Shown piece after piece: positions 33,909-50,031 of a DNA stretch of 64,000 nt. The first letter of the stretch is position 1. The number at the start of each line of letters is the position of its first letter. The translations under genes and the position numbers were made by a program. The notes under the pieces were generated by a model. The model was given only the letters and a program-made list of their open reading frames with translations, ran no database searches and was not told the DNA's origin. Source of the stretch: Candidatus Eiseniibacteriota bacterium (GTDB taxonomy: Bacteria > Eisenbacteria > RBG-16-71-46 > CAIMUX01 > VGJL01); the NCBI GenBank assembly GCA_963792585.1, contig CAWBWI010000006.1:928001-992000 (forward strand), in the 5' to 3' direction.

Positions 33909-34673
33909 TTGAGCATTGCACGCGATCTCCGCGGCCTCCTCCCGCGAGAGCACGGTTCCTGGGCCTATCTGCTGATTCCCCAGATCGCCGCGCTGATGGC
34001 CGCGGACCGACCCGCGCCGGCGACCGCGTGGTTGGGCGGGTCGGTCCTGATGTTCACCGCCTTCCAAGGATTCGCCGCCGCACGGAGACGTCGCGAAACA
34101 TGGAGTCCGGCCGGCCTCCTCTGTGCCATCGCCGGCGCGACCCTCCTCGCCCTCACGGCGCGCGCGCGCCCCCTGGCTCTCGTCCTTCTCCTCCCCTCGG
34201 CGATCCCGGCCCTTCTCACCCTGCGATCGACGAAAGGACGGATCGGGCGCGATGACGCGATCGAAGCGCTCGGCATCGTCGCCGCCTCGATTCTCGGATG
34301 CGGCGGTCTGTACGTGTCCGGGGCGTCGCATGCGGCGGTCGCGCTGCTCGCGATCGTCTCCTGCTCCTATTCGCTGCTGTCGCTGATCTGGGTGCGCGTG
34401 CGGCTCGCCGCCGAACTCAAGGGCCGCCGGCCGATCCTGTCGCACGGCTGGAACATCCCCGCGAGTCTTCTGATCCTCGGGCTCTCCGGCGTCGCCGGAA
34501 TCTCCATGGGAGGATTCGTCGTCGGGCTCTTGCCGGGCGTCTACCTGGGACGATCCCTGCTGGCCCTTCCGCGCCTGCGCGACGGTCGGGTGTGGGTGAC
34601 GATGCTCGGCGTGCAGGAGGCGATCGCGGCCGCCGTCTTCGCGATCGGGCTGGGGCTCTTTCTGCCCCGTTAG
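33909..34673 (+). CDS. YwiC-like membrane protein
   Basis: N-terminal LPREHGSW signature, multiple TM helices, C-terminal LGVQE. Confidence 0.75.
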   Translation: MSIARDLRGLLPREHGSWAYLLIPQIAALMAADRPAPATAWLGGSVLMFTAFQGFAAARRRRETWSPAGLLCAIAGATLLALTARARPLALVLLLPSAIPALLTLRSTKGRIGRDDAIEALGIVAASILGCGGLYVSGASHAAVALLAIVSCSYSLLSLIWVRVRLAAELKGRRPILSHGWNIPASLLILGLSGVAGISMGGFVVGLLPGVYLGRSLLALPRLRDGRVWVTMLGVQEAIAAAVFAIGLGLFLPR

Positions 34674-35197
34674 TGGGTCGCTACGGGGTGCAGCCGCATC
34701 CGCGAGAGAAGGCTCCGCGAGGCGGCGTCGATTCGATCGAATCCGTTGACAATCGACTCCTCGTCTTCGGGGGTCAGGAGCTTCGCCGCCACCCAGAACA
34801 CGATCGTCTTCTCGGTGCGCATGTGGGTGCGCATGCCGTGGACGTACCGGCGGGCGAGCTTCGCGAAAGATGCGCAGGACGCCTTGCCGTTGAGTCCAAA
34901 GATCGCTTCTGCAACCCGCTCGAAACAGGCGGCGTCTTCTCGGTGCTCCTCGAGCATCACGGACACGAGTCCCGCACGGGGACCGAAGCCATGCCGCGTG
35001 AGCTGCGGAAAGAAGTGGTGTTCTTCCTTGGAGCGGTGGAGACCTTCAGCAAACTCGCGAAGGAACTGAATCACCGCCCAGGCGCGATCCTCCGCGGGAT
35101 GCGTGCCCTGCTCCGCATGGAGCGCGAAGCCCTCGAGTTCGGTCACCGCGAGTTCGATCAAGCGGTGCTCTTGCAGAAGAATGTCCGTAGGTCTCAT
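34670..35197 (-). CDS. Hemerythrin-domain protein
   Basis: EHRLI...HRSKEE..FFP...EH...HMRTEKTIVF; paralog of 31963-32511. Confidence 0.88.
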   Translation of the reverse strand: MRPTDILLQEHRLIELAVTELEGFALHAEQGTHPAEDRAWAVIQFLREFAEGLHRSKEEHHFFPQLTRHGFGPRAGLVSVMLEEHREDAACFERVAEAIFGLNGKASCASFAKLARRYVHGMRTHMRTEKTIVFWVAAKLLTPEDEESIVNGFDRIDAASRSLLSRMRLHPVATH

Positions 35198-35436
35198 GCC
35201 AGCCCCTTGCTTTTGTGAAACGCGGCACGGATCGCTACCGGATCGATCGACTCTCCTCGACTGCCCAATGGAATCACCCTGGACGGTCGGGTCCCGATTG
35301 TCTCATCGAGGTGGAAATTGGTCAATGGTGGAACTTCTGTAACTGCAGACATTCTTGAGGGTTACGCAGGTAATTCGTTGCTCTTGGCACCGGCGTTTCG
35401 ACCCTCGCCCCCGTATGGGGTTGACGGGGGAGGAGA

Positions 35437-37101
35437 CTATTTTGTCGATCGGGTGGAAGCGGTGGTTTCGTCGAGAATTCGCCGCAAGATCGCTTCTGCG
35501 ACCTGCGGCAGGACCTGATCACCGCCCTCGGGATCGTCTGACAGCGTCTGTGCTGCGCGGTCGAATGCTTCGACGTGAGCGCGCATTCCATCCTCATCGA
35601 TGGCGTGATTCGGTTTTGCAAGAGACTCGGGGAATGGAAACGCTTCGATGTCGCGCCGACCGAGCGGGATGCTGCCTCCCGAAAGCGCCTGCGGACCGCG
35701 TCGCGTGCGGTGGATCGATGTGAGCCAGTCGCTGTTGAGGAGCAAGCCCGCGCGTAACAACATACGCTCTGCATCCGGCCCATCCCCGCGCGCGAGGAGC
35801 ATCAAGGTCCCGACCGATCCGGCGCAGCGTCCACGGAGATCGCAGCGCGCCCTGAGAGATCTCGACAACCCCGCCACGATGAGCTTCGGCCGATCGAGGA
35901 ACGCTCTTCGGTTGCGCGAAAGCCCCGGCGCCTCACGCGGCAGGACGGGTCGCGCGAACGTCCGCCCAAGGTAGCGTGCCGGAGCATGGCCCCATCGATC
36001 CCCGTGACGAACGATCAACCCGGCCGTGAGGAATCGCCAGCCCTTGCCGTCCTCCTGCAGGGAGTCCCTGATGGCATAGGCTTCCGACACCGTCATCGAT
36101 GCGCGCACGTCGAAGAGATCCCCGAAGGTCAGATGACGTTCGAGATCCGCGGTTTCCCCACCGCATTCCGGATCGAACAGCGCGCCCCAGCTCGTCTCCT
36201 CCAGGCGCCCGGGCGGGACTTCCCACAGGAGCTCGCCGTCCTCTCTCGTGACCGCCACGCAGCGGGGCGCCGGGCCCGAGCCGCCGATCACGCCGACCAT
36301 GGCGATCCCGCATTCCGGCGCCGGACGATCCCCGGGGAAGAGAACAAGCCTCCGCAGGGGCGACTCGCGCGCGAGCAGACGGCGCAACGGCGTCGCGTAG
36401 CGCGCGGACAGGAGCGCCCGGGGCGCCAACAATGCATAGCGGCCGCCGGGCGCGAGAAGCTGCGCCGCCAGGTGGACGAAGAGGACGCTGCGGTCGTACG
36501 GCCCGACCGCGGTCTCGGGAAAGCGTTCCTTCAGCTCCCGGCGCCCTTCTCCCGAACGGCCGGTCCGCTTCTCGATCGCGTTTCCGAAGGGAGGATTCCC
36601 GCAGACGAGGTCGAACGCTCCGTCCGCGGACGGCTCGAAGGAGCGGAGTGCATCGCCCCAGAGAATTCGGCGCGCGACGAGCTCCGGGTCTCGCACGGCA
36701 CCCGCATTCCACAGCGCCAACCTCGTGAGCGCAACCGCCACCGGATCGATGTCGACTCCATGGAGCTCCACCTCGGGGCCGAACAAGCTCCAAGCCTCCT
36801 CGAGAAAGACGCCCGCCCCCACGGCCGGATCGAGGATCCTCCGAGGACGCAGGCCTTCGTCCGCGGCGCGGGACAGGAGCGCTCGCGCGACGGTCCGCGG
36901 CGTCAGGTAGAGGCCGGTCGCGCGGCGGTCGGGGCGGGAATCGAGCCACGCGGACACGAGGTCGGTCGTTGTCGCCGGCGCTGCGGCGTCGCCGGCAACC
37001 GGCGCCGGGTCGAGAGTCGGGGGCAATCCGTCGCAGAGCAGAGCGGCCGGGACATCCGCCCCGGCACGTTCGCGCAGGATCCTCAGGATGGACAGGTCCA
37101 T
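35437..37101 (-). CDS. N6-adenine DNA methyltransferase (gamma/Eco57I-like), no adjacent endonuclease
   Basis: YLTPR, ILDPAVGAGVF (motif I), GVDIDP, GNPPF (motif IV). Confidence 0.82.
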   Translation of the reverse strand: MDLSILRILRERAGADVPAALLCDGLPPTLDPAPVAGDAAAPATTTDLVSAWLDSRPDRRATGLYLTPRTVARALLSRAADEGLRPRRILDPAVGAGVFLEEAWSLFGPEVELHGVDIDPVAVALTRLALWNAGAVRDPELVARRILWGDALRSFEPSADGAFDLVCGNPPFGNAIEKRTGRSGEGRRELKERFPETAVGPYDRSVLFVHLAAQLLAPGGRYALLAPRALLSARYATPLRRLLARESPLRRLVLFPGDRPAPECGIAMVGVIGGSGPAPRCVAVTREDGELLWEVPPGRLEETSWGALFDPECGGETADLERHLTFGDLFDVRASMTVSEAYAIRDSLQEDGKGWRFLTAGLIVRHGDRWGHAPARYLGRTFARPVLPREAPGLSRNRRAFLDRPKLIVAGLSRSLRARCDLRGRCAGSVGTLMLLARGDGPDAERMLLRAGLLLNSDWLTSIHRTRRGPQALSGGSIPLGRRDIEAFPFPESLAKPNHAIDEDGMRAHVEAFDRAAQTLSDDPEGGDQVLPQVAEAILRRILDETTASTRSTK

Positions 37102-37120
37102 GGCGGACCAGTCTAGCCGC

Positions 37121-38008
37121 TCAGTCGAGGAGAATCAGCTTCGTACTCCGCACGCCCGCGGGCGATGTCAGGCGGGCCAGGTAGATACCGCTCGACGCGC
37201 CGGCAGCATTCCAGACGACCTCGTGGGAGCCGGCGGGAAGGGTCCCGTCAGCGAGCGTGGCGATGCGGCGTCCCTGAAGATCGAGGATCTCCACGCGCAC
37301 GTTTTCGGACGCGGTCAGGAAGACCGCGAACGTCGCGCGTCCCACGCACGGGTTCGGACCCACGGCCGAGATGCGCGCCGGCGCATCGTCCACGGATGCG
37401 GGCGGGATCTGGGGACAGTCGTTGTGCCCGGGCTGAAACCACCGAATCACGCCGAAGTTCTCGCAGAGGTCCTCGTTCGGCGGGTCTGCGTCGTCAAAGA
37501 ACTTCGCCTGGTTCGTGCTCGGGTAGCTTCGCGTTGCGAAGTAGTTCTCCGGTCCGTCGACGAACGTAGCAAACCAATAGAGGCGGATGAGGCGTTCATG
37601 GACCGGGGAGCCAAACGTGACGATGTTCCCGAATCCGGTCTCGGGCCAGCCGGGATCTGGAGACTCGGTTGGCGAGGGCCCGCAGACTCTCCAATTGGTG
37701 AAGTACCCTTGATCAGCGGGGATATTGTGGTCGATCCCGAATTGAACCGTGGTCACGGCGGGCGAAGCATCCGGCAGAAACGCCGCCATGACCCAGATGA
37801 TCTGTTCCTCGTCGATCCCTCGTCCAGCGGCGGCATTCAGCTCCTCACACGTAGCGGGAAGGGTCGGAGTACTGCACCAGTACGCGCCGTCTCTGTACTG
37901 CACCGTGTCGTCGGTGTGCACCACGAGAGCACCGTTGGCATTGCGCCCGGCGACTGCGGGCGGGGCAAGAAGCATCAGAAGCACGATCGAGGAAATCAAC
38001 ATTCTCAT
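37121..38008 (-). CDS. Secreted hypothetical protein with T9SS-A/FlgD-like C-terminal domain
   Basis: Signal peptide; AGRNANGALVVH; tail PNP...LDLQGRRIATL...SGIYLARL; GGAGGT RBS. Confidence 0.85.
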   Translation of the reverse strand: MRMLISSIVLLMLLAPPAVAGRNANGALVVHTDDTVQYRDGAYWCSTPTLPATCEELNAAAGRGIDEEQIIWVMAAFLPDASPAVTTVQFGIDHNIPADQGYFTNWRVCGPSPTESPDPGWPETGFGNIVTFGSPVHERLIRLYWFATFVDGPENYFATRSYPSTNQAKFFDDADPPNEDLCENFGVIRWFQPGHNDCPQIPPASVDDAPARISAVGPNPCVGRATFAVFLTASENVRVEILDLQGRRIATLADGTLPAGSHEVVWNAAGASSGIYLARLTSPAGVRSTKLILLD

Positions 38009-38098
38009 AGCGACCTCCTGAGCCCAGTGGGTTCCCTTTGCAGCGCGTCTATTGTATCACCCCCCCCCCAAGTCGAGGTCAAGGAGGATAAAAGGAAG

Positions 38099-38138
38099 AC
38101 CCGGGGAGCCAATGTCCTCTAGGACAGGTCCCCCGGGC
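38099..38138 (-). terminator. Conserved GC hairpin downstream of paralog 1
   Basis: CCCGGGG...GTCC-tcta-GGAC...CCCCGGG followed by a pyrimidine/U tract on the minus strand; homologous copies follow paralogs 2 and 3. Confidence 0.6.
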
Positions 38139-38187
38139 CATAAGCCGGCCCCCGCTGCGGAGCAAGGCCGGCAGGTGTCGGTTCGAC

Positions 38188-40230
38188 TTACTTCAGTAGA
38201 ACCATCTTCTCCGTGCGGACGCCGTCGGCCGTCGTCAGCCGTGCGAAGTAGACGCCGCTCTCAACCGGCTTGCCGCCGTCCGAGATGCCGTTCCAGGTCT
38301 GAACGTGCACGCCCGGAGTCATCCGGCCGCTCACGAGTTGCGTGACCTTGCGTCCGCCCAGGTCGAATACCTCCAGGCTGACCGGACCGTTCGCGCCGAC
38401 CGGCGACAGCGTGAAGCTGATCTCCGTCTTCGGGTTGAACGGGTTCGGACGCACCGCGTCGATCCGGGTGGTGAACAAGACGTTCCCGTCGGGCGCATCG
38501 GCCGGAGGCGCCGGATGCAGCCAGTTCAGGATGCGGCCGAGCAAGAACTTCTGGTTGTTCGGATCCGCGTCGGTCGCGCTGACCGCATGGAAGCAGGCCG
38601 GCATGAAGACGACCTTCGCGTCGTTGTACACGTTGTGGATCAGAGCGTTCGAATTCTCGTTGCCGAGCAGACCCGTCACCGCCGTGTTCGGAACCGCGTT
38701 GTCCCCCTTGTTGAACGAGGGGAACTGGAAGGACAACGGCAGGTTGAACCCATCGCCGATCGGATCGCCCACGACTCCGAGGAGGCTCGTGTAGCCCGTG
38801 TTGAGCGTCCAGGACGCGATCCCAAGATAGTTTTGCGTGAAGTCGCTTGGCGAGGTGCTATCCAGGAACGACTGACTCGTGAAGTAGAGACTTCCCCCCC
38901 CGTCCACGAACTGCATCATCAACGCTTGGTCACCGGCGTCCGGGGGAGTGGAGGTCCGGTACCCGGTCTCCCAGATCATGATGTCGAAGCCCTGGACGTT
39001 CGCGTACGAAGGTGCCGTACCATTGTGGACGTTGTTGATGTCCCACTGCTCGTAGAGGTAGCCGAGCTGGTTCAACGCCGTCGTCCAGATCCCGCTGCCT
39101 CCACCGGTGGAGCTGCTGTCGTTGATCAGATAAACGGCGTAGCTGCCGTTGAACACCCGCATCGACTTCGTCTGGACCCTACCCGAGGTGTTCGATGTGA
39201 CGTTGAAGCCGCCCGTCCGGACCGCGACCGTCCCGTTCGTGTGAACGCGAACGGTGAAATCACAGGTCCCGTTCGGGGGCAGTGTCACCTGGGTGGGCGC
39301 CGTGTGCGGATTCGGGTCGCCGCAGACCAGGAAGTCCGTCGTCCAGTCCCCGAACGCCGCGCCCGGCTCGAGCGTGAAGATCTGGTTCGAGGCCGTCAGG
39401 TTCCAGAGCTGCCCGGTGAAGGTGGCTGTGCCGTTCCCCTCCGGGACCGACTTGACCTTCACTGGATAGTAGAGCGAGAAGTCCGGAGCCTGGCCCGCGC
39501 CGATCTTCTGCGCCTGAATGACTTCCTTGGTCGCCGTCGATTGGAGGTAAGCGATTCCGACCAGGTTCGCCGGCACCCATGAGCCGATCGAGACGTTGGT
39601 CGAGATCGTCACCTCGTCGCCGACGTTGGTCAGCGTGACGTTCTGGTCGTAGATCTTGCGGGTGACGCGGTCCCAGTGGTCCACGCCGCCGTAGCCGCAG
39701 CACCAGGTCAGATCGTCTTCGTAGAGCAGCAGAGTGCCGCGCAGGTTGCTGAGCTGCACCGGGTCGACCAGCTTGAAGGTCGCCGACATCGAGGCGACCC
39801 CGGCGTTGATCGTCATGCTGGAATTGATGACGACCGGGCTGGCGCCATCGGTTGCGGCGATCCGCGCGTTGAGCCCGTTCCGGTAGCTGACAGTTTGGTT
39901 TGGGCAGACATCCGCCCCGACGAATTCCGAGATCCCGTCGATCTCGACCGTGGGGAATCCGTCTATGCCGTAGAAATTCTGCCTGGCCGTGGTCTCCGTT
40001 GTCGTGAACGGGTCCGTGCCGGAGCAGTGGTTTTCCCAGTGAACGACCTGGTTGCCGAACTCGGTCTCCATCGCATCGCACGCGCACCGCGCGCGAGGAC
40101 AGTACGTTCACCACGTGGCCCCGAACTCCTCGATGGTCATCACCTTGGGCACGCTCGCCAGAGCGGCGGGCACGACCAGCGCTCCAAGCATCAGGAGGAT
40201 CCCGATGAGAGCGGCAAACTTCCGTTGCAT
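38188..40230 (-). CDS. Putative secreted selenoprotein paralog 1: Omp28/thioredoxin-like UxxC domain + FlgD-Ig tail (Sec41 = TGA at 40108-40110)
   Basis: Track ORFs 40108..40290 and 38188..40071 are in frame across one TGA: MQRKF...EEFGATW-U-TYCPRARC...GFPTVEIDG; GGAGGT RBS; signal peptide; 680 aa on readthrough. Confidence 0.85.
40076..40096 (-). promoter_or_regulatory. Putative bacterial SECIS (paralog 1)
   Basis: UCGCGCGC-GGUGC-GCGUGCGA, 8-bp stem; 19 nt lie between the UGA and the loop. Confidence 0.75.
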
Positions 40231-40439
40231 GGCACCTCCAAGTGAAGCGAAGCGGCCGACCCAGTAACCGAACCATGTCCATAAGGACATTCCTGGAGCA
40301 AACTGAGATTATTTTACACTAAATGGGTCGATGATCTGACCACAATCTACTGCACTACATCAGGCTACGGTCGGGGTGGTCCCGCGGGAAACGGGATCAT
40401 CCGGTGGGTTTTCGGTGCCGAAACGCGCCCAAAAGGAAG

Positions 40440-40480
40440 GCCCGGGGAGCCCAATGTCCTCTGGGACAGGTCCCCCGGGC
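40440..40480 (-). terminator. Conserved GC hairpin downstream of paralog 2
   Basis: Homologous to 38099-38138; followed by CTTCCTTTT on the minus strand. Confidence 0.6.
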
Positions 40481-40529
40481 CATGAGCCGGCCCCCGCTGC
40501 GGAGCAAGGCCGGCAGGTGTCGGTTCGAC

Positions 40530-42564
40530 TTACTTCAGTAGAACCATCTTCTCCGTGCGGACGCCGTCGGCCGTCGTCAGCCGTGCGAAGTAGACGCCGC
40601 TCTCAACCGGCTTGCCGCCGTCCGAGATGCCGTTCCAGGTCTGGACGTGCACGCCCGGGGTCATCCGGCCGCTCACGAGTTGCGTGACCTTGCGTCCGCC
40701 CAGGTCGAAGACCTCCAGGCTGACCGGACCGTTCGCGCCGACCGGCGACAGCGTGAAGCTGATCTCCGTCTTCGGGTTGAACGGGTTCGGACGCACCGCG
40801 TCGATCCGGGTGGTGAACAAGACGTTCCCGTCGGGCGCATCGGCCGGAGGCGCCGGATGCAGCCAGTTCAGGATGCGGCCGAGCAAGAACTTCTGGTTGT
40901 TCGGATCCGCGTCGGTCGCGCTGACCGCATGGAAGCAGGCCGGCATGAAGACGACCTTCGCGTCGTTGTTCACGTTGTGGATCAGAGCGTTCGAATTCTC
41001 GTTGCCGAGCAGACCCGTCACCGCCGTGTTCGGAACCGCGTTGTCCCCCTTGTTGAACGAGGGGAACTGGAAGGACAACGGCAGGTTGAACCCGTCGCCG
41101 ATCGGATCGCCGCACGACTCCGAGGAGGCTCGTGTAGCCCGTGTCGAGCGTCCACGATGCGATCCCGAGGTAGTTCTGCGTGAAGTTGTTCGGGACGTTG
41201 TTCAGGGAGTTCAGGAACAGCTGGCTCGTGAAGTAGAGGCTTCCCCCCGCGTCCACGAACTGCATCATCAACGCCTGCTCGCTCGCGTCCGGGGGGCTGG
41301 AGGTCCGGTACCCGGTCTCCCAGATCATGATGTCGAAGCCCTGGACGTTCGCGTACGAAGGGGCGGCTCCGCTGTGGACGTTGTTGATGTCCCACTGCTC
41401 GTAGAGGTAGCCGAGCTGGTTCAACGCCGTCGTCCAGATCCCGCTACCTCCACCGGTGGAGCTGCTGTCGTTGATTAGGTAGACAGAGTAGCTGCCGTTG
41501 AACACCCGCATCGACTTCGTCTGGACCCTACCCGAGGTGTTCGATGTCACGTTGAAGCCACCCGTCCGGACCGCGACCGTCCCGTTCGTGTGAACGCGAA
41601 CGGTGAAATCACAGGTCCCGTTCGGGGGAAGGGTCACCTGGGTGGGCGCCGTGTGCGGATTCGGGTCGCCGCAGACCAGGAAGTCCGTCGTCCAGTCCCC
41701 GAACGCCGCGCCCGGCTCGAGGGTAAAGATCTGGTTCGAGGCCGTCAGGTTCCAGAGCTGCCCGGTGAAGGTGGCTGTGCCGTTCCCCTCCGGGACCGAC
41801 CTGACCTTCAGCGGATAGTAGAGCGAGAAGTCGAGGGCCGGAGCCGAGCCAATCCTCTGCGCCTGGATGATCTCCTTGGAGACGGTTGACTGCAGGTAGA
41901 CGACCCCAACCAGGTTAGCCGGGGACCAAGAACCAATCGGCACGTTTGCAGCGATGGTTGCTTGATCACCCACGTTCGTCAGCGTGATGTTCTGATCATA
42001 GATCTTGCGCGTCACACCGTCCCAGTACTCGCCACCGTTGAGGACGTTGTCCTCGTAGAGCAGCAGCGTTCCGCGAAGGTTGGACACGGAAACAGGGTCG
42101 ACGAGGGTGAAGGTCCCCGACATCGACGCCGTGCCTCCTGCTATGGACATCGACGCATTGCTGATGAGTACAGGGCTCACCCCGTCGATGGCGGCCAGTC
42201 GGCCGTTGATGTCCGTTCTATAGATGCTGGCCATTGCCGAGCATGTGCTCCCGCCAACCTCCTGGATGATTCCGTCGATCCGAACATCCGGAACACCACT
42301 GACGCCATACCAGTTGGTCCTGGCGATCGTCTCCGAGGTGGAAAGCGTTCCCGACGTGTGGAGCTCCCAATGCGCCATTCGCGTGGGACCCATTTCATCT
42401 TGCACCGTCTGCAGCCCGCACCGGGCCGCTGGGCAATAGGGTCAGGTCGTGTACCCAAACTCCTCAGCCATGATGACCCTGGGCACGCTCGCCAGAGCGG
42501 CGGGCACGACCAGCGCCCCAAGCATCAGGAGGATCCCGATGAAAGCAGCAAACTTCCGTTGCAT
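40530..42564 (-). CDS. Putative secreted selenoprotein paralog 2 (Sec41 = TGA at 42442-42444; 1-nt frameshift near 41113)
   Basis: MQRKFAAFIG...EEFGYTT-U-PYCPAARC...GVPDVRIDG in frame with ORF 40603..42405; one extra base versus paralog 1 (GTGCGGCGAT vs GTGGGCGAT) shifts the C-terminus into ORF 40530..41078. Confidence 0.8.
42411..42429 (-). promoter_or_regulatory. Putative bacterial SECIS (paralog 2)
   Basis: GCGGCCC-GGUGC-GGGCUGC, 7-bp stem with the same loop and spacing as paralogs 1 and 3. Confidence 0.72.
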
Positions 42565-42654
42565 AGCACCTCCCCTATAACGATCTGACCACCAAGAAGA
42601 TAGAGCCGGTTCCGTCGAGCCGGCCTGGAGACATCACGTACCAATTATAAGGGA

Positions 42655-42670
42655 TATGAAACGTTTCACA
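42655..42670. promoter_or_regulatory. CRP-like box upstream of paralog 2
   Basis: TATGA-AACGTT-TCACA, one mismatch to TGTGA-N6-TCACA, in an AT-rich intergenic region. Confidence 0.5.
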
Positions 42671-42699
42671 AACTCGGGATAACCAAATCGAAAAAATGA

Positions 42700-42736
42700 C
42701 CCGGGGGCCTCGTCCTCTGGGACGCAGACCCCCGGG
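42700..42736 (-). terminator. Conserved GC hairpin downstream of paralog 3
   Basis: CCCGGGGG...GTCC-tctg-GGAC...CCCCCGGG followed by a T6 tract on the minus strand. Confidence 0.65.
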
Positions 42737-42785
42737 CTGAACCGACCCCGGCCTTATTGGGCGCAGGATCAGCAAATGCCTCCGA

Positions 42786-44839
42786 TTACTTCAGCAGGAC
42801 GAGCTTGGTCCCCTGCTTCCCCTCGACCGTCGTCAGGCGGGCGAAGTAGACACCGCTCTCGACCGGCTTGCCGGCATCGGAGAGTCCGGCCCAGGCGACC
42901 GTATGGTCCCCCGGGGTCGTCCTTCCCTCGTACACACCGGCCACCCGGCGACCGGCCATGTCGTAGATCTCGAGGCGGACCGGTCCATCCGCTCCGCGGG
43001 GAGAGACCTGGTAGAAGATCTCGGTGCGCGGGTTGAACGGATTCGGTCGGACCGACGAGATCCTCGAGGCGAGGATCGAACCCGGGAGGTCATCGACGTC
43101 CGCGGGAGGCGCCGGCTGCAACCAGGTCAGGATCCGTCCGAGGACGGTCTTCTGGTTGTTCGGATCCGGGTCGGTCGGGCTGATCGCATTGAAGACCGCA
43201 GGCATGAAGACTGCCTTGGATCCCCGCCCAACCACGTTGTGAAGAACCGCGTTGGATCCCTCGTCCCCGAGCAGCGAGGTGACCGCCGTCGCCGGATTCG
43301 CGTTGTCCCCCTTGTTGAACGAAGGGAACTGGAACGAGAGCGGCAAGGTGAGGCCGTCGCCGATCGGGTCCCCCGCGACGCCGTTGAGGGTCGTGTACCC
43401 CGTGTCGAGCGTCCAGGTGCCGATTCCGAGGTAGTTCTGGGTGAACGCGTTTGGCGTCCCGACGGAGTTCAGGAAGTACTGGCTGGTGAGGAACAGGCTC
43501 CCGCCGGCATCCATGAACTGCATCATCAACGCCTGCTCGGGGTCTCCCGGCAGAGCGTTCGACCGGTAGGCCGTCTCCCAGATCATGATGTCGAAGCCCG
43601 AGACATCGAGCCAGCCCGGCGGGGTGCCGCTGTGCTGGTAGGCGATATCCCAGCGGTCGTACAGGTAACCGAGCTGATCGAGCGCGGTCGTCCAGATCGC
43701 GGAGTGCTCGGTGTTCTGGTTGTTGTTCACGAGGAAGACCGCGTAGCTGCCGTTGAACACACGCAGGTTGGACGTCTTCACGTCTCCCGAGTTGCTCGAT
43801 GACGCTTCGAACGCTCCCGTCCGGATCTGCTTGGTCCCATCCGTGTGGACGCGGACCGTGAAGTCGCAGGACTCGCCGGCGGGGACGCTGATCTCAACCG
43901 GCGCGGTGTGCGGGTTCGGATCGCCGCAGACGAGAATCTCGCTCGTCCAGGTCCCGAGACCCGTGGGCGGCGTGAGCGTGAGCACGTCGGCGTTGAGGCC
44001 GGTGTTCGTGATCTGTCCCGTGAAGACCGCCGTTCCATTGCCGGCCGGGACGGAGTCCACGAAGTTGGCGAAGGTCATGCGGAAGTCGTAGGGACGGGGC
44101 ATCCGGTAGCCCTGGATGATCGGGGTGGTCCCGGTCGTCTGCTGGAGGTAGGCGATCCCCGTCAGATTGTCCACGTTCCAGTTCGGGTTCCGCGGGACCG
44201 TGGTGGACACCGTGACCTGGTCACCGACGTTGGTCAGCGTGATGTTCTGGTCGTACATGTCGCGGGTCACGCGATCCCAGTGGCTCACGTTCCCGTATCC
44301 GCAGCACCAGGTGATGTCGTCCTCGTAGAAGAGAAGCGTCGCGCGGAGGTTGGTCAGGGTGACCGGGTCGACCTTGCGGAAAGTCGCAGAGTAGATGATG
44401 TCGGTCGCCGTGGTCTGGAAGCTTCCCGTGATCTCCACAGGACTTACGTTGTTCGTCTCGTTGAATCGCGCGTTCAGCGCGTTGCGGTACAAGACCGTCG
44501 TCGTGGGGCAAACATCCGCGCCGATGAACTCGCGGCTGCCGTCGATCTCGATCGTGGGGTAACCGGACGTACGCCGTACCAGTTCGCACGAGCCGTCGTC
44601 TCGGTCGTGGTGAAGGGATCGTTGCTGGAGACATGATGGCTCTCCCAGTGAATGACCCGATCACCGAACTCGATTTCCATTGCTTCGGACGCGCACCGCG
44701 CCCGAGGGCAGTACGTTCACCACGTCGCCCCGAATTCTTCGATGATTGCGACCTTCGGCACGCTCGCCATGACTGCGGGCGCGAACACCGCCCCGAGCAG
44801 GAGCAAGATCCCCCCGAGGGCTGCGAACTTTCTGAGCAT
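42786..44839 (-). CDS. Putative secreted selenoprotein paralog 3 (Sec41 = TGA at 44717-44719; frameshift near 44570)
   Basis: MLRKFAALGG...EEFGATW-U-TYCPRARCASEAMEIE in frame with ORF 44474..44680; after YGV the homologous GYPTIEIDG...YRNALN continues in the frame of ORF 42786..44492; GGAGGT RBS; FlgD-like tail. Confidence 0.8.
44685..44705 (-). promoter_or_regulatory. Putative bacterial SECIS (paralog 3)
   Basis: UCGGGCGC-GGUGC-GCGUCCGA, 8-bp stem with a compensatory C-G to G-C swap versus paralog 1. Confidence 0.75.
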
Positions 44840-44988
44840 GACACCTCCCCAAGCTGCATCCGACTGTGGTCACACATACGCGGAAGCCGATCCAGAGGAC
44901 CCGATCCAGAGGATCCGCTCCAGATGACGCCCTTGAATTCTACCATATCGAATGCCTGGAATTGAAGGATGTAGAAGCACTTATATCG

Positions 44989-45004
44989 TGTGAAACTCAT
45001 CACA
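44989..45004. promoter_or_regulatory. Consensus CRP-type box upstream of paralog 3
   Basis: TGTGA-AACTCA-TCACA, exact TGTGA-N6-TCACA, 150 bp upstream of the start. Confidence 0.6.
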
Positions 45005-45190
45005 TATGTGGTTTTCGCTCATCCTCCGTCCGCTGAATGTCCCGGGGTCGCAGTCCTCGGACGGCACGTCGCGACCGGGACTCTGCGTCGCGGTCCATCC
45101 CGCAGTGCGCCGCCGGCTCCACAATCCATAGGGTGCTGCCCGGGACCTTGGCTAACCACTTGAAATCGCGCGGGATCGAGGGCCCCCTTC

Positions 45191-47257
45191 TTGAGGACGG
45201 CCGAAGGCCCTGCTAGTCTGGGCGCCTGGACGAAGGAGCACGATGAACTCGCCGATGATCTCGGATTCCGCGCCGCCCGCAAACCGGCCCTCCGGTTGGC
45301 CATCGCCATCCTGGTTCTCTCCTCGGTGCTGCCCTATCTGAATGCTCTCCGTTGCGGCTTCGCATTCGACGACCAGCTCCTCGTGGCGCGCCACAAGGTC
45401 GTGACCGGTGCTTTCGCGCCCCTTTCCATTCTGGCGGCTCCATACTGGGAGGCGATCCGAGAAGCGCTCTTGTGGCGGCCGGTGACCACCTTCTCCTTCG
45501 CGATCGATTGGCATCTCGGAGGAGGAGGCGCCGCATGGTTCCACGCGGTCAATATTGGATTGCACGCGATCGTGACGCTGCTGTGGGCCTGGCTCGTATT
45601 GCGGATCACGAGTCGTCGCGCTCTGGCGCTGGTCGCAGGAGCGCTCTTCGCGGTCCACCCGATCCACACCGAAGCGGTGACCTGGATTTCGGGGCGGGCG
45701 GAGCTGCTCGCTGCGGCGTTCGGACTCGCGGCCGTGCACCTCGCCTGGTCGCGTTGGCGATGGCTCACCCTGCCGGCCGTGCTGCTCGCCGTTGGATCGA
45801 AGGAGAGCGCGGCGGCCTTGCCGTTGATCCTGCTCTATCTGAGTTGGGCCTTGCGCGGGAGGCGCGCCGATGCCCCGTCATGGCGCCTCGGCGTTGCCGC
45901 GTTCGCGCCGGTCGTGCTGTTCGTCGTCCTGCGTCGCGTCGTGCTCGGGACATGGGGCGGCCCGAGCCCCGATCCGATGGACAATCCGATGAGCGGGCTC
46001 GGACTCCTCGCGCGGTTGCCGACCGTCCTGGATGCGGCGGGGCGTTATCTGGTTCTGCTCATCTGGCCCGCGCGGCTGTCGATCGACTACTCCGCGCCGG
46101 TTCTGGGGGTCGTGCGCGGCCTGACGCCGCTCCTTCTCATGGGGCTCGTCGCGTCGGTCGGTCTCGTCTTGCTGGCCATCCGGCGTCGCCGCGAGCCGGA
46201 AGGGTGGGGCGCCGGGTTCGCGCTCCTGAGTTTCGCGCTCGCGTCCAACCTGCCGGTGGTGATCGGCACCATCTTCGCCGAGCGCCTCCTCTACCTTCCC
46301 TCGGCGGGGTTGCTCCTCATCGCCGTGTGTGGAGGTTTCGCCCTCACCCGTCAGCGGGTGCCCGCGCGGGCGCTCCAGGCGATCCTCGCAATCCTCATCC
46401 TTGCCGGCGTCGCCCGTACATGGACCCGTAACCGCGATTATCTCGACGAGGCGACGATGTATGCGGCCGGAGTGCGTGTCACCCCGAATAGCCCCAAGAT
46501 GCGCTTCAACCATGCGCTCGCGCTCAACCGCCAGGGCCGGCATGAGGATGCCGTCCGCGAGGGAATCGAGGCCATCCGCCTGAACCCATCGAGCCGCGAA
46601 GCACGTGATGTCATCGCCTGCTCGCTCGATTCGCTCGGCAGAGGAGAGGAGGCGATCCGCTTCCTCCGTCGCGTTCTGATCGAAGATCCGGGAGACCGCG
46701 TTTCGCGAAGGAAGCTGATCACCCTGCTCGAGAAGCGCGGCCTGCTCGACGCGGTCGATTCCATCGCCACCGCGGGGGTGCGAGGCGATCCGGACGAGCC
46801 CGAATGGGTGGGGCGGGCCGCGAAGGCCGCGCAGGATCGGAGGGACTACGCGCGCGCGGCCGAACTCTGGCGCGAGGCCTTGCGCCGCTCGCCGGACACG
46901 GTCGACGTTCCGCTCTACCTCGCATTCTGCCTCTACAAGCTCGGGGACATCATCGGCGCACGGGACGCATACCGCGAGGCGTTGCGTCGCTCCCCCGAAT
47001 CGGCGGACGCCGCGAACGGGCTCGCCTGGGCCCTGCTCGAAACCGGCGGCCCGGTGGACGAGGCAATCCGCCTCGGGGAACTGGCGACCGCGAAAGCGCC
47101 GCAGGGCGCGAACGGATTCGACACTCTGGCCCGCGCCTACGAAGCGGCGAGACGATGCGCCGACGCGATCCGCGCCCAGGAGCGGGCGATCGAACTCGAT
47201 CCGGCCAATGCGTCGTACCGTCAGAGACTCGCCGCGATCCGGCAACGCTGCCGGTAG
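45191..47257 (+). CDS. TMTC/DUF1736-like GT-C membrane protein with C-terminal TPR repeats (start uncertain)
   Basis: FAFDD, WRPVTT, FHAVNIGLH, HPIHTEAVTWISGRAELL, SKE, AERLLYLPS, then TPRs. Confidence 0.85.
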   Translation: MRTAEGPASLGAWTKEHDELADDLGFRAARKPALRLAIAILVLSSVLPYLNALRCGFAFDDQLLVARHKVVTGAFAPLSILAAPYWEAIREALLWRPVTTFSFAIDWHLGGGGAAWFHAVNIGLHAIVTLLWAWLVLRITSRRALALVAGALFAVHPIHTEAVTWISGRAELLAAAFGLAAVHLAWSRWRWLTLPAVLLAVGSKESAAALPLILLYLSWALRGRRADAPSWRLGVAAFAPVVLFVVLRRVVLGTWGGPSPDPMDNPMSGLGLLARLPTVLDAAGRYLVLLIWPARLSIDYSAPVLGVVRGLTPLLLMGLVASVGLVLLAIRRRREPEGWGAGFALLSFALASNLPVVIGTIFAERLLYLPSAGLLLIAVCGGFALTRQRVPARALQAILAILILAGVARTWTRNRDYLDEATMYAAGVRVTPNSPKMRFNHALALNRQGRHEDAVREGIEAIRLNPSSREARDVIACSLDSLGRGEEAIRFLRRVLIEDPGDRVSRRKLITLLEKRGLLDAVDSIATAGVRGDPDEPEWVGRAAKAAQDRRDYARAAELWREALRRSPDTVDVPLYLAFCLYKLGDIIGARDAYREALRRSPESADAANGLAWALLETGGPVDEAIRLGELATAKAPQGANGFDTLARAYEAARRCADAIRAQERAIELDPANASYRQRLAAIRQRCR

Positions 47258-47993: not shown

Positions 47994-50031
47994 ATGATCC
48001 GACTTGCGCGCCTGGCTACCCTCGTCGCGGCTGTGGGAGGGCTCCTCCTTCCTGCCGCCGGCCGAGCGGCAGGACCCGAATCCGCGACTGACGGTCCTCC
48101 TACCTGGACCTCCGGCCCGACCTCCAGGTCCGACTGGAACTGGGAGCGGATGCGATCGACCCTCACCTTCCGCCTGCCGCCCGACTACGCATCGATGCCG
48201 AAGTTCGACCCCTCCACAGGAATGAAAGAGATGCTCCCCGCGCGCTGGGACTGGCGCGAGCACGACGGCGTGACCCCGGTCAAGGACCAGGGCAGTTGCG
48301 GAAGCTGCTGGGCATTCGCGTCCGTAGGGGCGCTGGAAGCCGCCGCTCGCCTGACCGACAAGGTCGTCTACGACGTGAGCGAGCAGCAGGTGATGGCCTG
48401 CAACTCGTTCGGGCAGGGCTGCGGCGGCGGGTGGTTCGACGCTCCCTATGAGGTCTTCTCGGCATACGGCGCGGTCCCCGAAGAGTGCATGCCCTATCAG
48501 GCGACCGACGGAATCCCCTGCATCCAGGAGACCTATCCCCCCTCGATCGTGGCGACCGACTTCCTCCTCTTCGAGGAGAGCGTCGAATCGATCAAGGCGG
48601 CCGTCTACACCTACGGCCCGATCGCATGCGCCATGTACGTCTTCGACGAGTTCACGAGGTACACGGGCGGCTGCTACTCGCGCGGACCCGCAGGGGACGT
48701 CAACCACGCGGTCGTCATCGTCGGCTGGGACGACGGCCTGTGCGGCGGCGCATGGATCGCCAAGAACAGCTGGGGGGAAGGTTGGGGCGATCGGCGGCTT
48801 CTTCACGATCCGGTACGGTAGCGCGGAGATCGGCACCTCGCCCTGCTTCTTCAAGCCCAAGCCGGGTCGCGTGATCTCGATCCGACCCGTGCCGATCGAA
48901 TCGACACTCGACGGGACCCTCCCGTTCGCCGTGCGCGCGAGCATCCATTCCCTCGCAGGCACCGCGATCAATCCAGACTCGGTTTGCCTCAACTACCGCG
49001 TGAACGGAGAAGGATGGCGTTGCACGACGATGGAGCGGGACGACGCGCCGGGCCTCTGGGTCGGCACGATCCCGCCGCAGGAGAAACCGGCCACCGTCGA
49101 ATACTATCTGCGTGCTGATGACGTCGACGATCGGCGGGCGATCGCGCCCGGGAACGCGCCCGACAGCCTCTACGCCTTCGACGTCGCGCGCGAGCTGGAG
49201 TGTTTCGAGGGCGACAACTCCGGATGGACGGTCGGATCACCGGACGATGCCGCCACGTCGGGTCGATGGGAATGGGTCGATCCGGTCGGGACGCAGGCGC
49301 AACCTGCGGCCGACCGCACCCCGCGCGGCAACCGCGCATGGATCACCGGCCAGCACACCCCCGGCCAGGATGTGGGATTCAACGACGTCGACAACGGAAG
49401 GACCACCCTGACCAGTCCTGGATATGACCTGACCGGTTCGCGAACCGCCGTCTTCAAGTACTTCCGCTGGTTCTCGAACGACAAGGGACAGAATCCCGGC
49501 GAGGATCCCTGGATCGTCCAGGCACGAAACGACGGCGGTCCATGGGTCGACATCGAAAACACCGGGGTCTCGAGCGATGCGTGGGTCGAGGTGAAGTACG
49601 ACCTGATGCAGCTCTTCGGCCCGGCGATCGGGCTCGTCCAGGTGCGATTCATCGCCCAGGATCTCGGCTCGCCGTCATGTGTCGAGGCGGCGGTCGACGA
49701 CCTCGCGATCCTCGCAGAGCAACCCGAGGCGAGCGCGACGCGTCAACCCGCCCCCCTGGTGTCGGAGTTGACCGCTGATCCGAATCCCGCCGCCGCGACG
49801 GTCCTCTTGCGCTTTACCCTGCCGCGGGATGAGACGGTGCGCCTCCGGGTGTTCGCGCCGGACGGACGGCTCGTGCGAACGCTGGCCGACGGAACGTACC
49901 GGTCCGGAGCCCACGTCGTCGCGTGGGATGGTCGGGACGGCTTCGGCCGCCGCGCTCCGTCGGGGCCCTACTACTGGTCCCTCGAGGGCGCGGGAACGCG
50001 TCGCACCGGCTCCTTGCGCATCTTGCGGTAG
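47994..50031 (+). CDS. C1A papain-family cysteine peptidase with FlgD-Ig tail (1-nt frameshift near 48792)
   Basis: KDQGSCGSCWAF, NHAVVIVGW, KNSWGEGWG; continues as GGFFTIRYG...PNP...WDG...SGPYYW in ORF 48448..50031. Confidence 0.87.

Follow-up and report, generated by a model that had tools for sequence, protein, structure and literature searches.

Two described systems come closest to the genes considered here. GOS_C, which was predicted in 2008 by Zhang and Gladyshev, is a thioredoxin-like protein with a UxxC motif (U, selenocysteine or Sec) that was represented by 74 Sec-containing and 312 Cys-containing sequences and came without functional evidence in the accessible text of that study (PMC2398784). 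A table in the available portion of a 2026 review equates this "hypothetical protein GOS_C" with the curated family NF045500, "Omp28-related selenoprotein" (PMC13188914). The second system is HBP35 of Porphyromonas gingivalis (PDB 5y1a), a protein with Cys-dependent thioredoxin activity whose surface display depends on its C-terminal domain (CTD); within the part of the article open to us, its authors call the physiological role of the thioredoxin domain unknown (PMC2907840). Here we analyze three tandem genes, A, B, and C, in a 64,000-nucleotide stretch of a Candidatus Eiseniibacteriota genome (contig CAWBWI010000006.1 of assembly GCA_963792585.1, positions 928,001 to 992,000; hereafter the window). 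Our reading, to which we assign a probability of roughly 0.68, is that these genes insert Sec at an in-frame TGA codon and encode exported, probably surface-displayed thiol-disulfide exchange enzymes. The codon, a downstream hairpin, the decoding machinery, and the domain order can be read directly from the DNA; the fold is a prediction.

All three genes lie on the minus strand and share one layout: a GGAGG(T) ribosome-binding site precedes the ATG start, and a hydrophobic leader ending in A-x-A/S is followed by a TGA at codon 41; the positions and contexts given in a first-pass annotation of the window were confirmed. Gene A (42786..44839, ~684 codons) has its TGA at 44717..44719 in the context EEFGATW*TYC (W-U-T-Y-C), gene B (40530..42564; T-U-P-Y-C, GVPD) at 42442..42444 in EEFGYTT*PYC, and gene C (38188..40230; W-U-T-Y-C, GFPT) at 40108..40110 in EEFGATW*TYC. 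The putative signal peptide of gene C, as judged from hydrophobicity and its A-L-A end, spans residues 1-25 (40156..40230). When TGA is read as Sec, gene C forms one unbroken 680-residue frame, the only clean frame of the three in the assembly. The proposal that every frame continues past the TGA into a cis-Pro motif for ~680 residues therefore stood for gene C and failed for the other two. Gene A contains 2 extra bases near 44567-44569, and its frame from the TGA does not reach GYPT (tblastn alignments split near 44567). Gene B contains 1 extra base near 41113-41114 that shifts its last ~190 codons (split near 41113). Accordingly, their lengths are 2 bases and 1 base off a multiple of three. 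Both frameshifts had been overlooked, as had the hairpin and the middle domains described below.

To follow the TGA position beyond this locus, we searched 201 genomes of the phylum with the N-terminal unit, which matched in 42 of them (162 matches): 33/33 genomes of the same order and 9/168 elsewhere. Part of these matches, taken as 29 automatic loci and 80 regions, was scanned with a hidden Markov model (HMM) together with the window's own contig (C6), yielding 128 distinct motif copies from 39 genomes after two duplicate loci were excluded. At the first motif position the codon was TGA in 97 copies and TGC or TGT in 31, and nothing else occurred; the second Cys was never TGA. Homologues bearing Cys and homologues bearing TGA were thus both found, and Trp or Gly was never seen at this position. 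The sole HMM match without the motif was the downstream fragment of gene A. TGA copies were spread over 34 genomes (1-6 per genome among those fetched), and a hydrophobicity heuristic placed a leader ahead of 93 of the 97.

The genome also encodes what is needed to read such codons. On its contigs, selA (487 bits), selB (321 bits), and selD (387 bits) scored over their cut-offs, and a single tRNA-Sec with a UCA anticodon scored 68 bits against a gathering threshold of 47, so that a lack of Sec machinery, which the first-pass annotation had named as a reason for doubt, does not apply in this 84%-complete assembly. The selD gene carries its own in-frame TGA and a GG-loop hairpin. Among the 34 surveyed genomes that hold a TGA copy, 32 gave a selA match; the others are 75% and 81% complete. 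As a separate observation, ARAGORN called a 92-nt tRNA-Cys(GCA) at G000:C1:127609-127700 (-), beside a normal 75-nt tRNA-Cys; it is not among the matches to the tRNA-Sec model and may be a false call.

Behind each TGA lies a hairpin of the selenocysteine insertion sequence (SECIS) type. In the main clade it occupies positions +16 to +28 after the TGA and reads GCCC-GGUGC-GGGC or GCGC-GGUGC-GCGC. Its core maps to 44689..44701 in gene A (GCGC stem, GGUGC loop), 42414..42426 in gene B (GCCC stem, GGUGC loop, with the middle stem pair flipped relative to genes A and C), and 40080..40092 in gene C, all on the minus strand. The geometry, an upper stem of 4 bp or longer and a 5-nt loop that starts with GG 19 nt from the UGA, falls within the consensus limits for bacterial SECIS elements given in the accessible text of PMC13188914. 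We examined covariation in a gap-free alignment of 83 sequences, namely all 85 core TGA copies except two own-genome paralogs outside the window. Hairpin cells were paired in 90.1% of cases versus 80.8% in shuffled alignments, the covariation score was 0.225 versus 0.075, and every slid control scored lower. Pair 21:29 was C-G in 59 copies, G-C in 21, and broken in 3, and the window itself contains both states (C-G in gene B, G-C in genes A and C). Because the shuffles ignore kinship and two of five measures failed to beat them (235/500), we also traced this flip through a phylogeny built from 127 copies, without gene A, and it required 6 parsimony steps. A complete hairpin with a GG loop was present in 72/85 core TGA copies versus 0/6 Cys copies nested in the same clade. 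The case for the hairpin consists of the count of a named structure, the tree, and single folds.

The hairpin does not differ in mechanism from known bacterial, SelB-dependent Sec insertion with an intragenic SECIS: stem, loop, and spacing are the same, and selA, selB, selC, and selD are present. What distinguishes it is its placement on the codons A-R-C-G/A, so that hairpin pairing shapes the protein sequence. One side of the 21:29 flip is a silent third position and the other exchanges Gly for Ala; the Arg codon that runs across stem and loop is CGG in 77/85 copies, compared with 30% genome-wide; and within the loop lies the codon of a Cys that is probably structural (C24 of the mature protein). 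With its covariation, the SECIS shows neatly, in a natural setting, how an RNA signal forces amino-acid changes.

A second group of 9 TGA copies (L106, L107, L108, L110, L111, L112, L114, L115, and L116) lies among Cys genes (support 0.97) and has the motif W-U-x-Y-C-P-x-A-A-S-G-I-E. Its hairpin is not that of the main clade: it has 6 bp and shows a T-A/C-G switch in all 9 copies, and it is absent from 5/5 Cys sisters. This clade probably represents an independent gain of Sec, an assignment that depends on a midpoint root. Taken together, the machinery, the Sec/Cys pairing, and the SECIS covariation make Sec decoding very likely, as the first reading of the TGA as a Sec signature had proposed, and we regard insertion of Sec at codon 41 as close to certain. 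Natural Sec and Cys versions are found side by side within single genomes and at times within one array, which makes the question of why a cell spends selenium on an exported protein directly testable. Two such mixed tandem arrays are L041:4431-17495 (G089) and L050 (G156), whose Cys copies are without the GG loop.

The predicted structure (confidence, as predicted local distance difference test, 93.5) places the UxxC motif in a thioredoxin-like fold that is followed by an Omp28-type immunoglobulin (Ig)-like domain, and HBP35 was the top match in both searches; the resemblance to Omp28-type domains had been noted from the sequence at first pass. In gene C this HBP35/Omp28-like unit comprises residues 26-245 (39496..40155). 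It is followed by a second Ig-like all-beta domain (about residues 249-360; 39151..39486), a class I glutamine amidotransferase (GATase)-like domain of the ThuA/GH42-trimerisation type without a catalytic Cys (about residues 364-574; 38509..39141), and a C-terminal FlgD-Ig/type IX secretion system (T9SS) type A sorting domain that ends in KMVLLK (38191..38481), all on the minus strand. The cis-Pro column is invariant (127/127 copies), and with this fold residues U41 and C44 would quite probably catalyze thiol-disulfide exchange. Most variation among paralogs falls within the N-terminal unit and extends to the x-x dipeptide of the motif and the residue before the cis-Pro, positions that would tune redox potential or specificity in thioredoxin folds. 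Mature C24 and C84 co-occur in 86/90 main-clade copies and in 0/37 others, which suggests a structural disulfide. In comparison, HBP35 (18% identity) has Cys in place of Sec and is without both this Cys pair and the Ig plus GATase-like insert.

The middle of the protein is unlikely to be catalytic. Known class I GATase-like domains, among them STM3548 (2gk3), the GH42 trimerisation domain, ThuA-like proteins, and the IFT52 GIFT domain, are its closest known counterparts. In the family studied here Ser or Gly, never Cys, occupies the presumed nucleophile elbow (a column assigned by sequence pattern, not by superposition), and there was no conserved His among the columns at ≥70% conservation. 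An active amidotransferase, which would use a Cys-His-Glu triad, was rejected on these grounds. The Ig plus GATase-like module also appears dispensable, since about 23/127 copies (~20%) are short forms without it; its two domains probably serve as a spacer or for binding, without catalysis.

The C-terminal tail passes TIGR04183 (37.2 bits versus a cut-off of 23), in agreement with the T9SS-A-like tail first proposed, and it matches the fold of the PorU CTD in structure comparison; its matches to Pfam FlgD_ig and Por_Secre_tail are below the gathering scores. The tail ends in KxVLLK, resembling the K-V-x-V-x termini that the available part of PMC2907840 discusses for HBP35 and RgpB. The genome encodes PorU (569 bits) and 8 PorV-family proteins, all over cut-off, and about 200 tblastn matches to the same tail occur genome-wide. 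Export across the inner membrane through the leader is highly probable, and onward display at the surface by a T9SS-type route is likely. Two more exported-looking proteins in the window (37121-38008 (-) and 48448-50031 (+)) carry a FlgD-Ig/T9SS-type tail of this kind, and Pfam matched nothing else in them.

These features suggest the following scheme. SelB would bind the GG-loop hairpin 19 nt past the UGA and deliver Sec-tRNA; the leader would carry the protein through the Sec translocon; and the CTD would route it through a T9SS-type outer-membrane channel, after which PorU would cleave and anchor it, as for HBP35 of P. gingivalis. At its destination, attack on substrate disulfides would fall to the selenolate, and resolution of the mixed bond to the second Cys. 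The products could then act as reductase- or isomerase-type catalysts, with the many CTD-tagged proteins that the cell exports, or extracellular proteins, as their substrates. With no DsbD route at the surface, they might work by isomerisation or draw electrons from environmental thiols or sulfide. If this is correct, selenium-based redox catalysis would operate outside the outer membrane, a combination that we found in no paper searched.

Several points weigh against this scheme. RNAalifold, run on the 83 aligned sequences, predicted no consensus structure, the conserved stem has no more than 4 bp, 13/85 core TGA copies fail the hairpin test, and the shuffle control takes no account of relatedness, with two of its five measures not exceeded. 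Sec insertion, localisation, and activity are all deduced from DNA and a predicted fold. At the outer membrane, the SprA-like gene is fragmented and its match is under the cut-off; GldM and GldN, components of the T9SS motor and ring, were not found in the 84%-complete assembly, although the same searches matched in no control genome either. Finally, a surface protein would have no obvious electron donor, and the genome's one DsbD-type gene would serve the periplasm. These last points speak for the most credible alternative, namely that the selenoproteins act in the periplasm as folding catalysts of the DsbA/DsbC/DsbG kind, for which a DsbD-type donor is present, with the FlgD-Ig tail serving as a scaffold or retention domain. 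We consider this unlikely, because the tail passes TIGR04183 and resembles the PorU CTD in fold, the genome has PorU and PorV genes that score over cut-off, and HBP35, the structural prototype, reaches the surface by way of its CTD.

Somewhat less probable still is a main role in capturing a surface ligand, such as heme or a metal, with the selenol and nearby Cys pairs serving as ligands or as a redox gate. HBP35 binds hemin and is needed for growth at low hemin, according to the accessible text of PMC2907840; an extra Cys-Cys pair occurs in the Ig unit of about 29/90 main-clade copies, genes A and C among them; and paralogs that differ mainly in the N-terminal unit would suit different ligands. 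However, the same text describes hemin binding by HBP35 as independent of its CxxC motif (PMC2907840), which would leave selection for Sec at that site unexplained. In addition, no His reaches 80% conservation in the N-terminal unit, and the Cys-Cys pair is absent from about two thirds of copies.

It is far less probable than either of these that the TGA is a true stop, with the genes split or decaying or yielding only a leaderless product from an internal start. Databases do hold the downstream products, internal-start forms are described for HBP35 itself in the portion of PMC2907840 available to us, and two of the three genes are frameshifted in the assembly. Against a true stop, the codon is TGA in 97 copies from 34 genomes, the leader ahead of it and the frame on either side are conserved, a covarying hairpin follows, no other stop codon ever occurs at the position, and the downstream Met is not conserved among copies. 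We also attribute the frameshifts in genes A and B, with good confidence, to assembly errors, because both insertions are missing from related-strain contigs in 5/5 covering runs (X1, X15, X16, X17, and X18; contigs of run X9 do not span the sites), because public orthologues 97% identical to gene A (P0010/P0208) continue in frame across its frameshift site, and because the assembly is prone to indels: one EF-Tu copy (G000:C3:1187450-1188582) has 4 single-base gaps relative to the other, and the SprA-like gene (G000:C4:17198-21309) is spread over several frames. Counting on the other side, the contigs without the frameshifts stem from strains ~3-7% different, so that the insertions could be true strain-specific lesions. 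Genome-wide reassignment of TGA to Trp or Gly, or its reading as Cys, has nothing in its favor beyond the in-frame TGA itself and was rejected as equally improbable, since TGA ends 474/890 long reading frames in this genome as an ordinary stop, homologues without TGA have Cys there in every case, and the sole UCA-anticodon tRNA found is the tRNA-Sec. Some leakage of Sec-tRNA to Cys may occur under selenium shortage.

The selenoproteins read in this way can be compared with curated families. The first-pass annotation had raised the possibility of an undescribed family; this did not hold, since UxxC Omp28-related selenoproteins are already curated as NF045500. Like the members of that family, the window proteins combine a UxxC motif in a thioredoxin-like fold with a downstream bacterial SECIS, and the model covers residues 29-243 of gene C (E 1.3e-14) and has matches in 35/35 genomes of the order. 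However, gene C scores 54.4 bits against a cut-off of 200, the best score in the order is 73.4, 0/35 genomes exceed the cut-off, and only model positions ~39-266 of 377 are covered. The window family further adds the second Ig domain, the GATase-like domain, and the T9SS-type tail, and it occurs in up to 6 Sec copies per genome fetched, often in tandem. We conclude that the window proteins would work like GOS_C and HBP35, yet are not members of NF045500, and that the genes represent a new, order-wide, multi-copy branch of a selenoprotein type whose first prediction dates from 2008. A type that lacked a function is thereby linked to a solved and assayed prototype. Because both the Sec insertion mechanism and the UxxC thioredoxin class are well known, the surprise is limited.

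Searches of the full-text literature gave no paper in which selenoproteins are connected to Omp28, Eisenbacteria, or type IX secretion; Haft and Tolstoy 2025 or BSepDB may already list members. The accessible portions of PMC12013277 and PMC13326102 contain no mention of Omp28, and the supplement of the latter, which gave no match even for GOS_C, is uninformative. As suspected at first pass, databases misannotate the family: most listed proteins are truncated and bear the label "hypothetical" or "T9SS type A sorting domain". In public records, 33 of 37 close homologues start past the Sec position and the 4 full-length ones carry Cys; many top matches in a search of 50%-representatives (893 matches at E≤0.001) likewise start past it. 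Reading the TGA as Sec restores the catalytic N terminus to the family, which is present in 33/33 sampled genomes of the order.

The three genes had been called diverged paralogs, a description that fits only part of their length. Genes B and C are 51-82% identical in their first 750 bases and 86-100% identical over the last ~1.3 kb (the 3' 60%), and they also have a common 3' flank; the active-site stretch of gene C resembles that of gene A. The array looks like the product of recent duplication or conversion of the C-terminal half combined with distinct N-terminal units. Elsewhere on the same contig are two further TGA paralogs, one long and one short form, and one Cys paralog (G000:C6:900893 (-), C6:742388 (-), and C6:327768 (+)). 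More tentatively, the order as a whole may display a battery of surface selenoenzymes through a T9SS-like route, in which active-site modules are swapped on a common C-terminal stalk and Sec has arisen at least 2 times, each time with its own SECIS.

Behind every gene of the array, on the minus strand, lies a separate terminator-like hairpin with a T-run, and the genes are therefore probably transcribed separately. The element after gene A (42691..42736) is a long GC hairpin without an Rfam match; those after genes B and C lie at 40431..40479 and 38090..38137. All three have a common inner GTCC-YAGA-GGAC stem-loop that is also recognisable in one relative (G013). We considered this shared element as a new regulatory RNA and set it aside: within this genome the complete hairpin is confined to the three array genes, it is recognisable in that one relative, and its T-run end points to a terminator. 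An Rfam scan of window positions 37000-46000 at E≤1 gave no match. A sigma-70-like consensus site upstream of gene B (TTGTGA-16-TATAAT; 42644..42671 (-)) is a weak candidate, as scans for promoters (1 found versus 1.1 expected) and terminators (6 versus 4.1) were both at chance level. Metatranscriptome contigs of a related strain span the three genes and are deeper over them than over their flanks (X15, X17, and X18), and a DNA run (X1) is flat; contig depth can neither rank genes nor show transcription, and we did not use it as evidence.

No conserved functional partner was found among the arrays examined, whose neighbors differ. On one side of the array, a divergent gene (45191-47257 (+)) encodes a membrane protein with C-terminal tetratricopeptide repeats, which we take to resemble TMTC-type glycosyltransferases; it stands beside the family only in three genomes of the same taxonomic family (G013, G091, and G135). 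Just downstream of the array (34670-37101 (-)) are hemerythrin and N6-adenine methyltransferase genes, and the methyltransferase adjoins a family member in G013 as well. A rough scan of the genome yielded three further selenoprotein candidates, each with a short GG-loop hairpin, whose labels we presume from their motifs: a TlpA-like U-G-P-C domain behind an N-terminal part of ~300 residues (G000:C3:1081711 (-)), a BCP/peroxiredoxin-like protein with T-P-G-U (C1:1644338 (+)), and a HesB-like protein (C3:350819 (-)).

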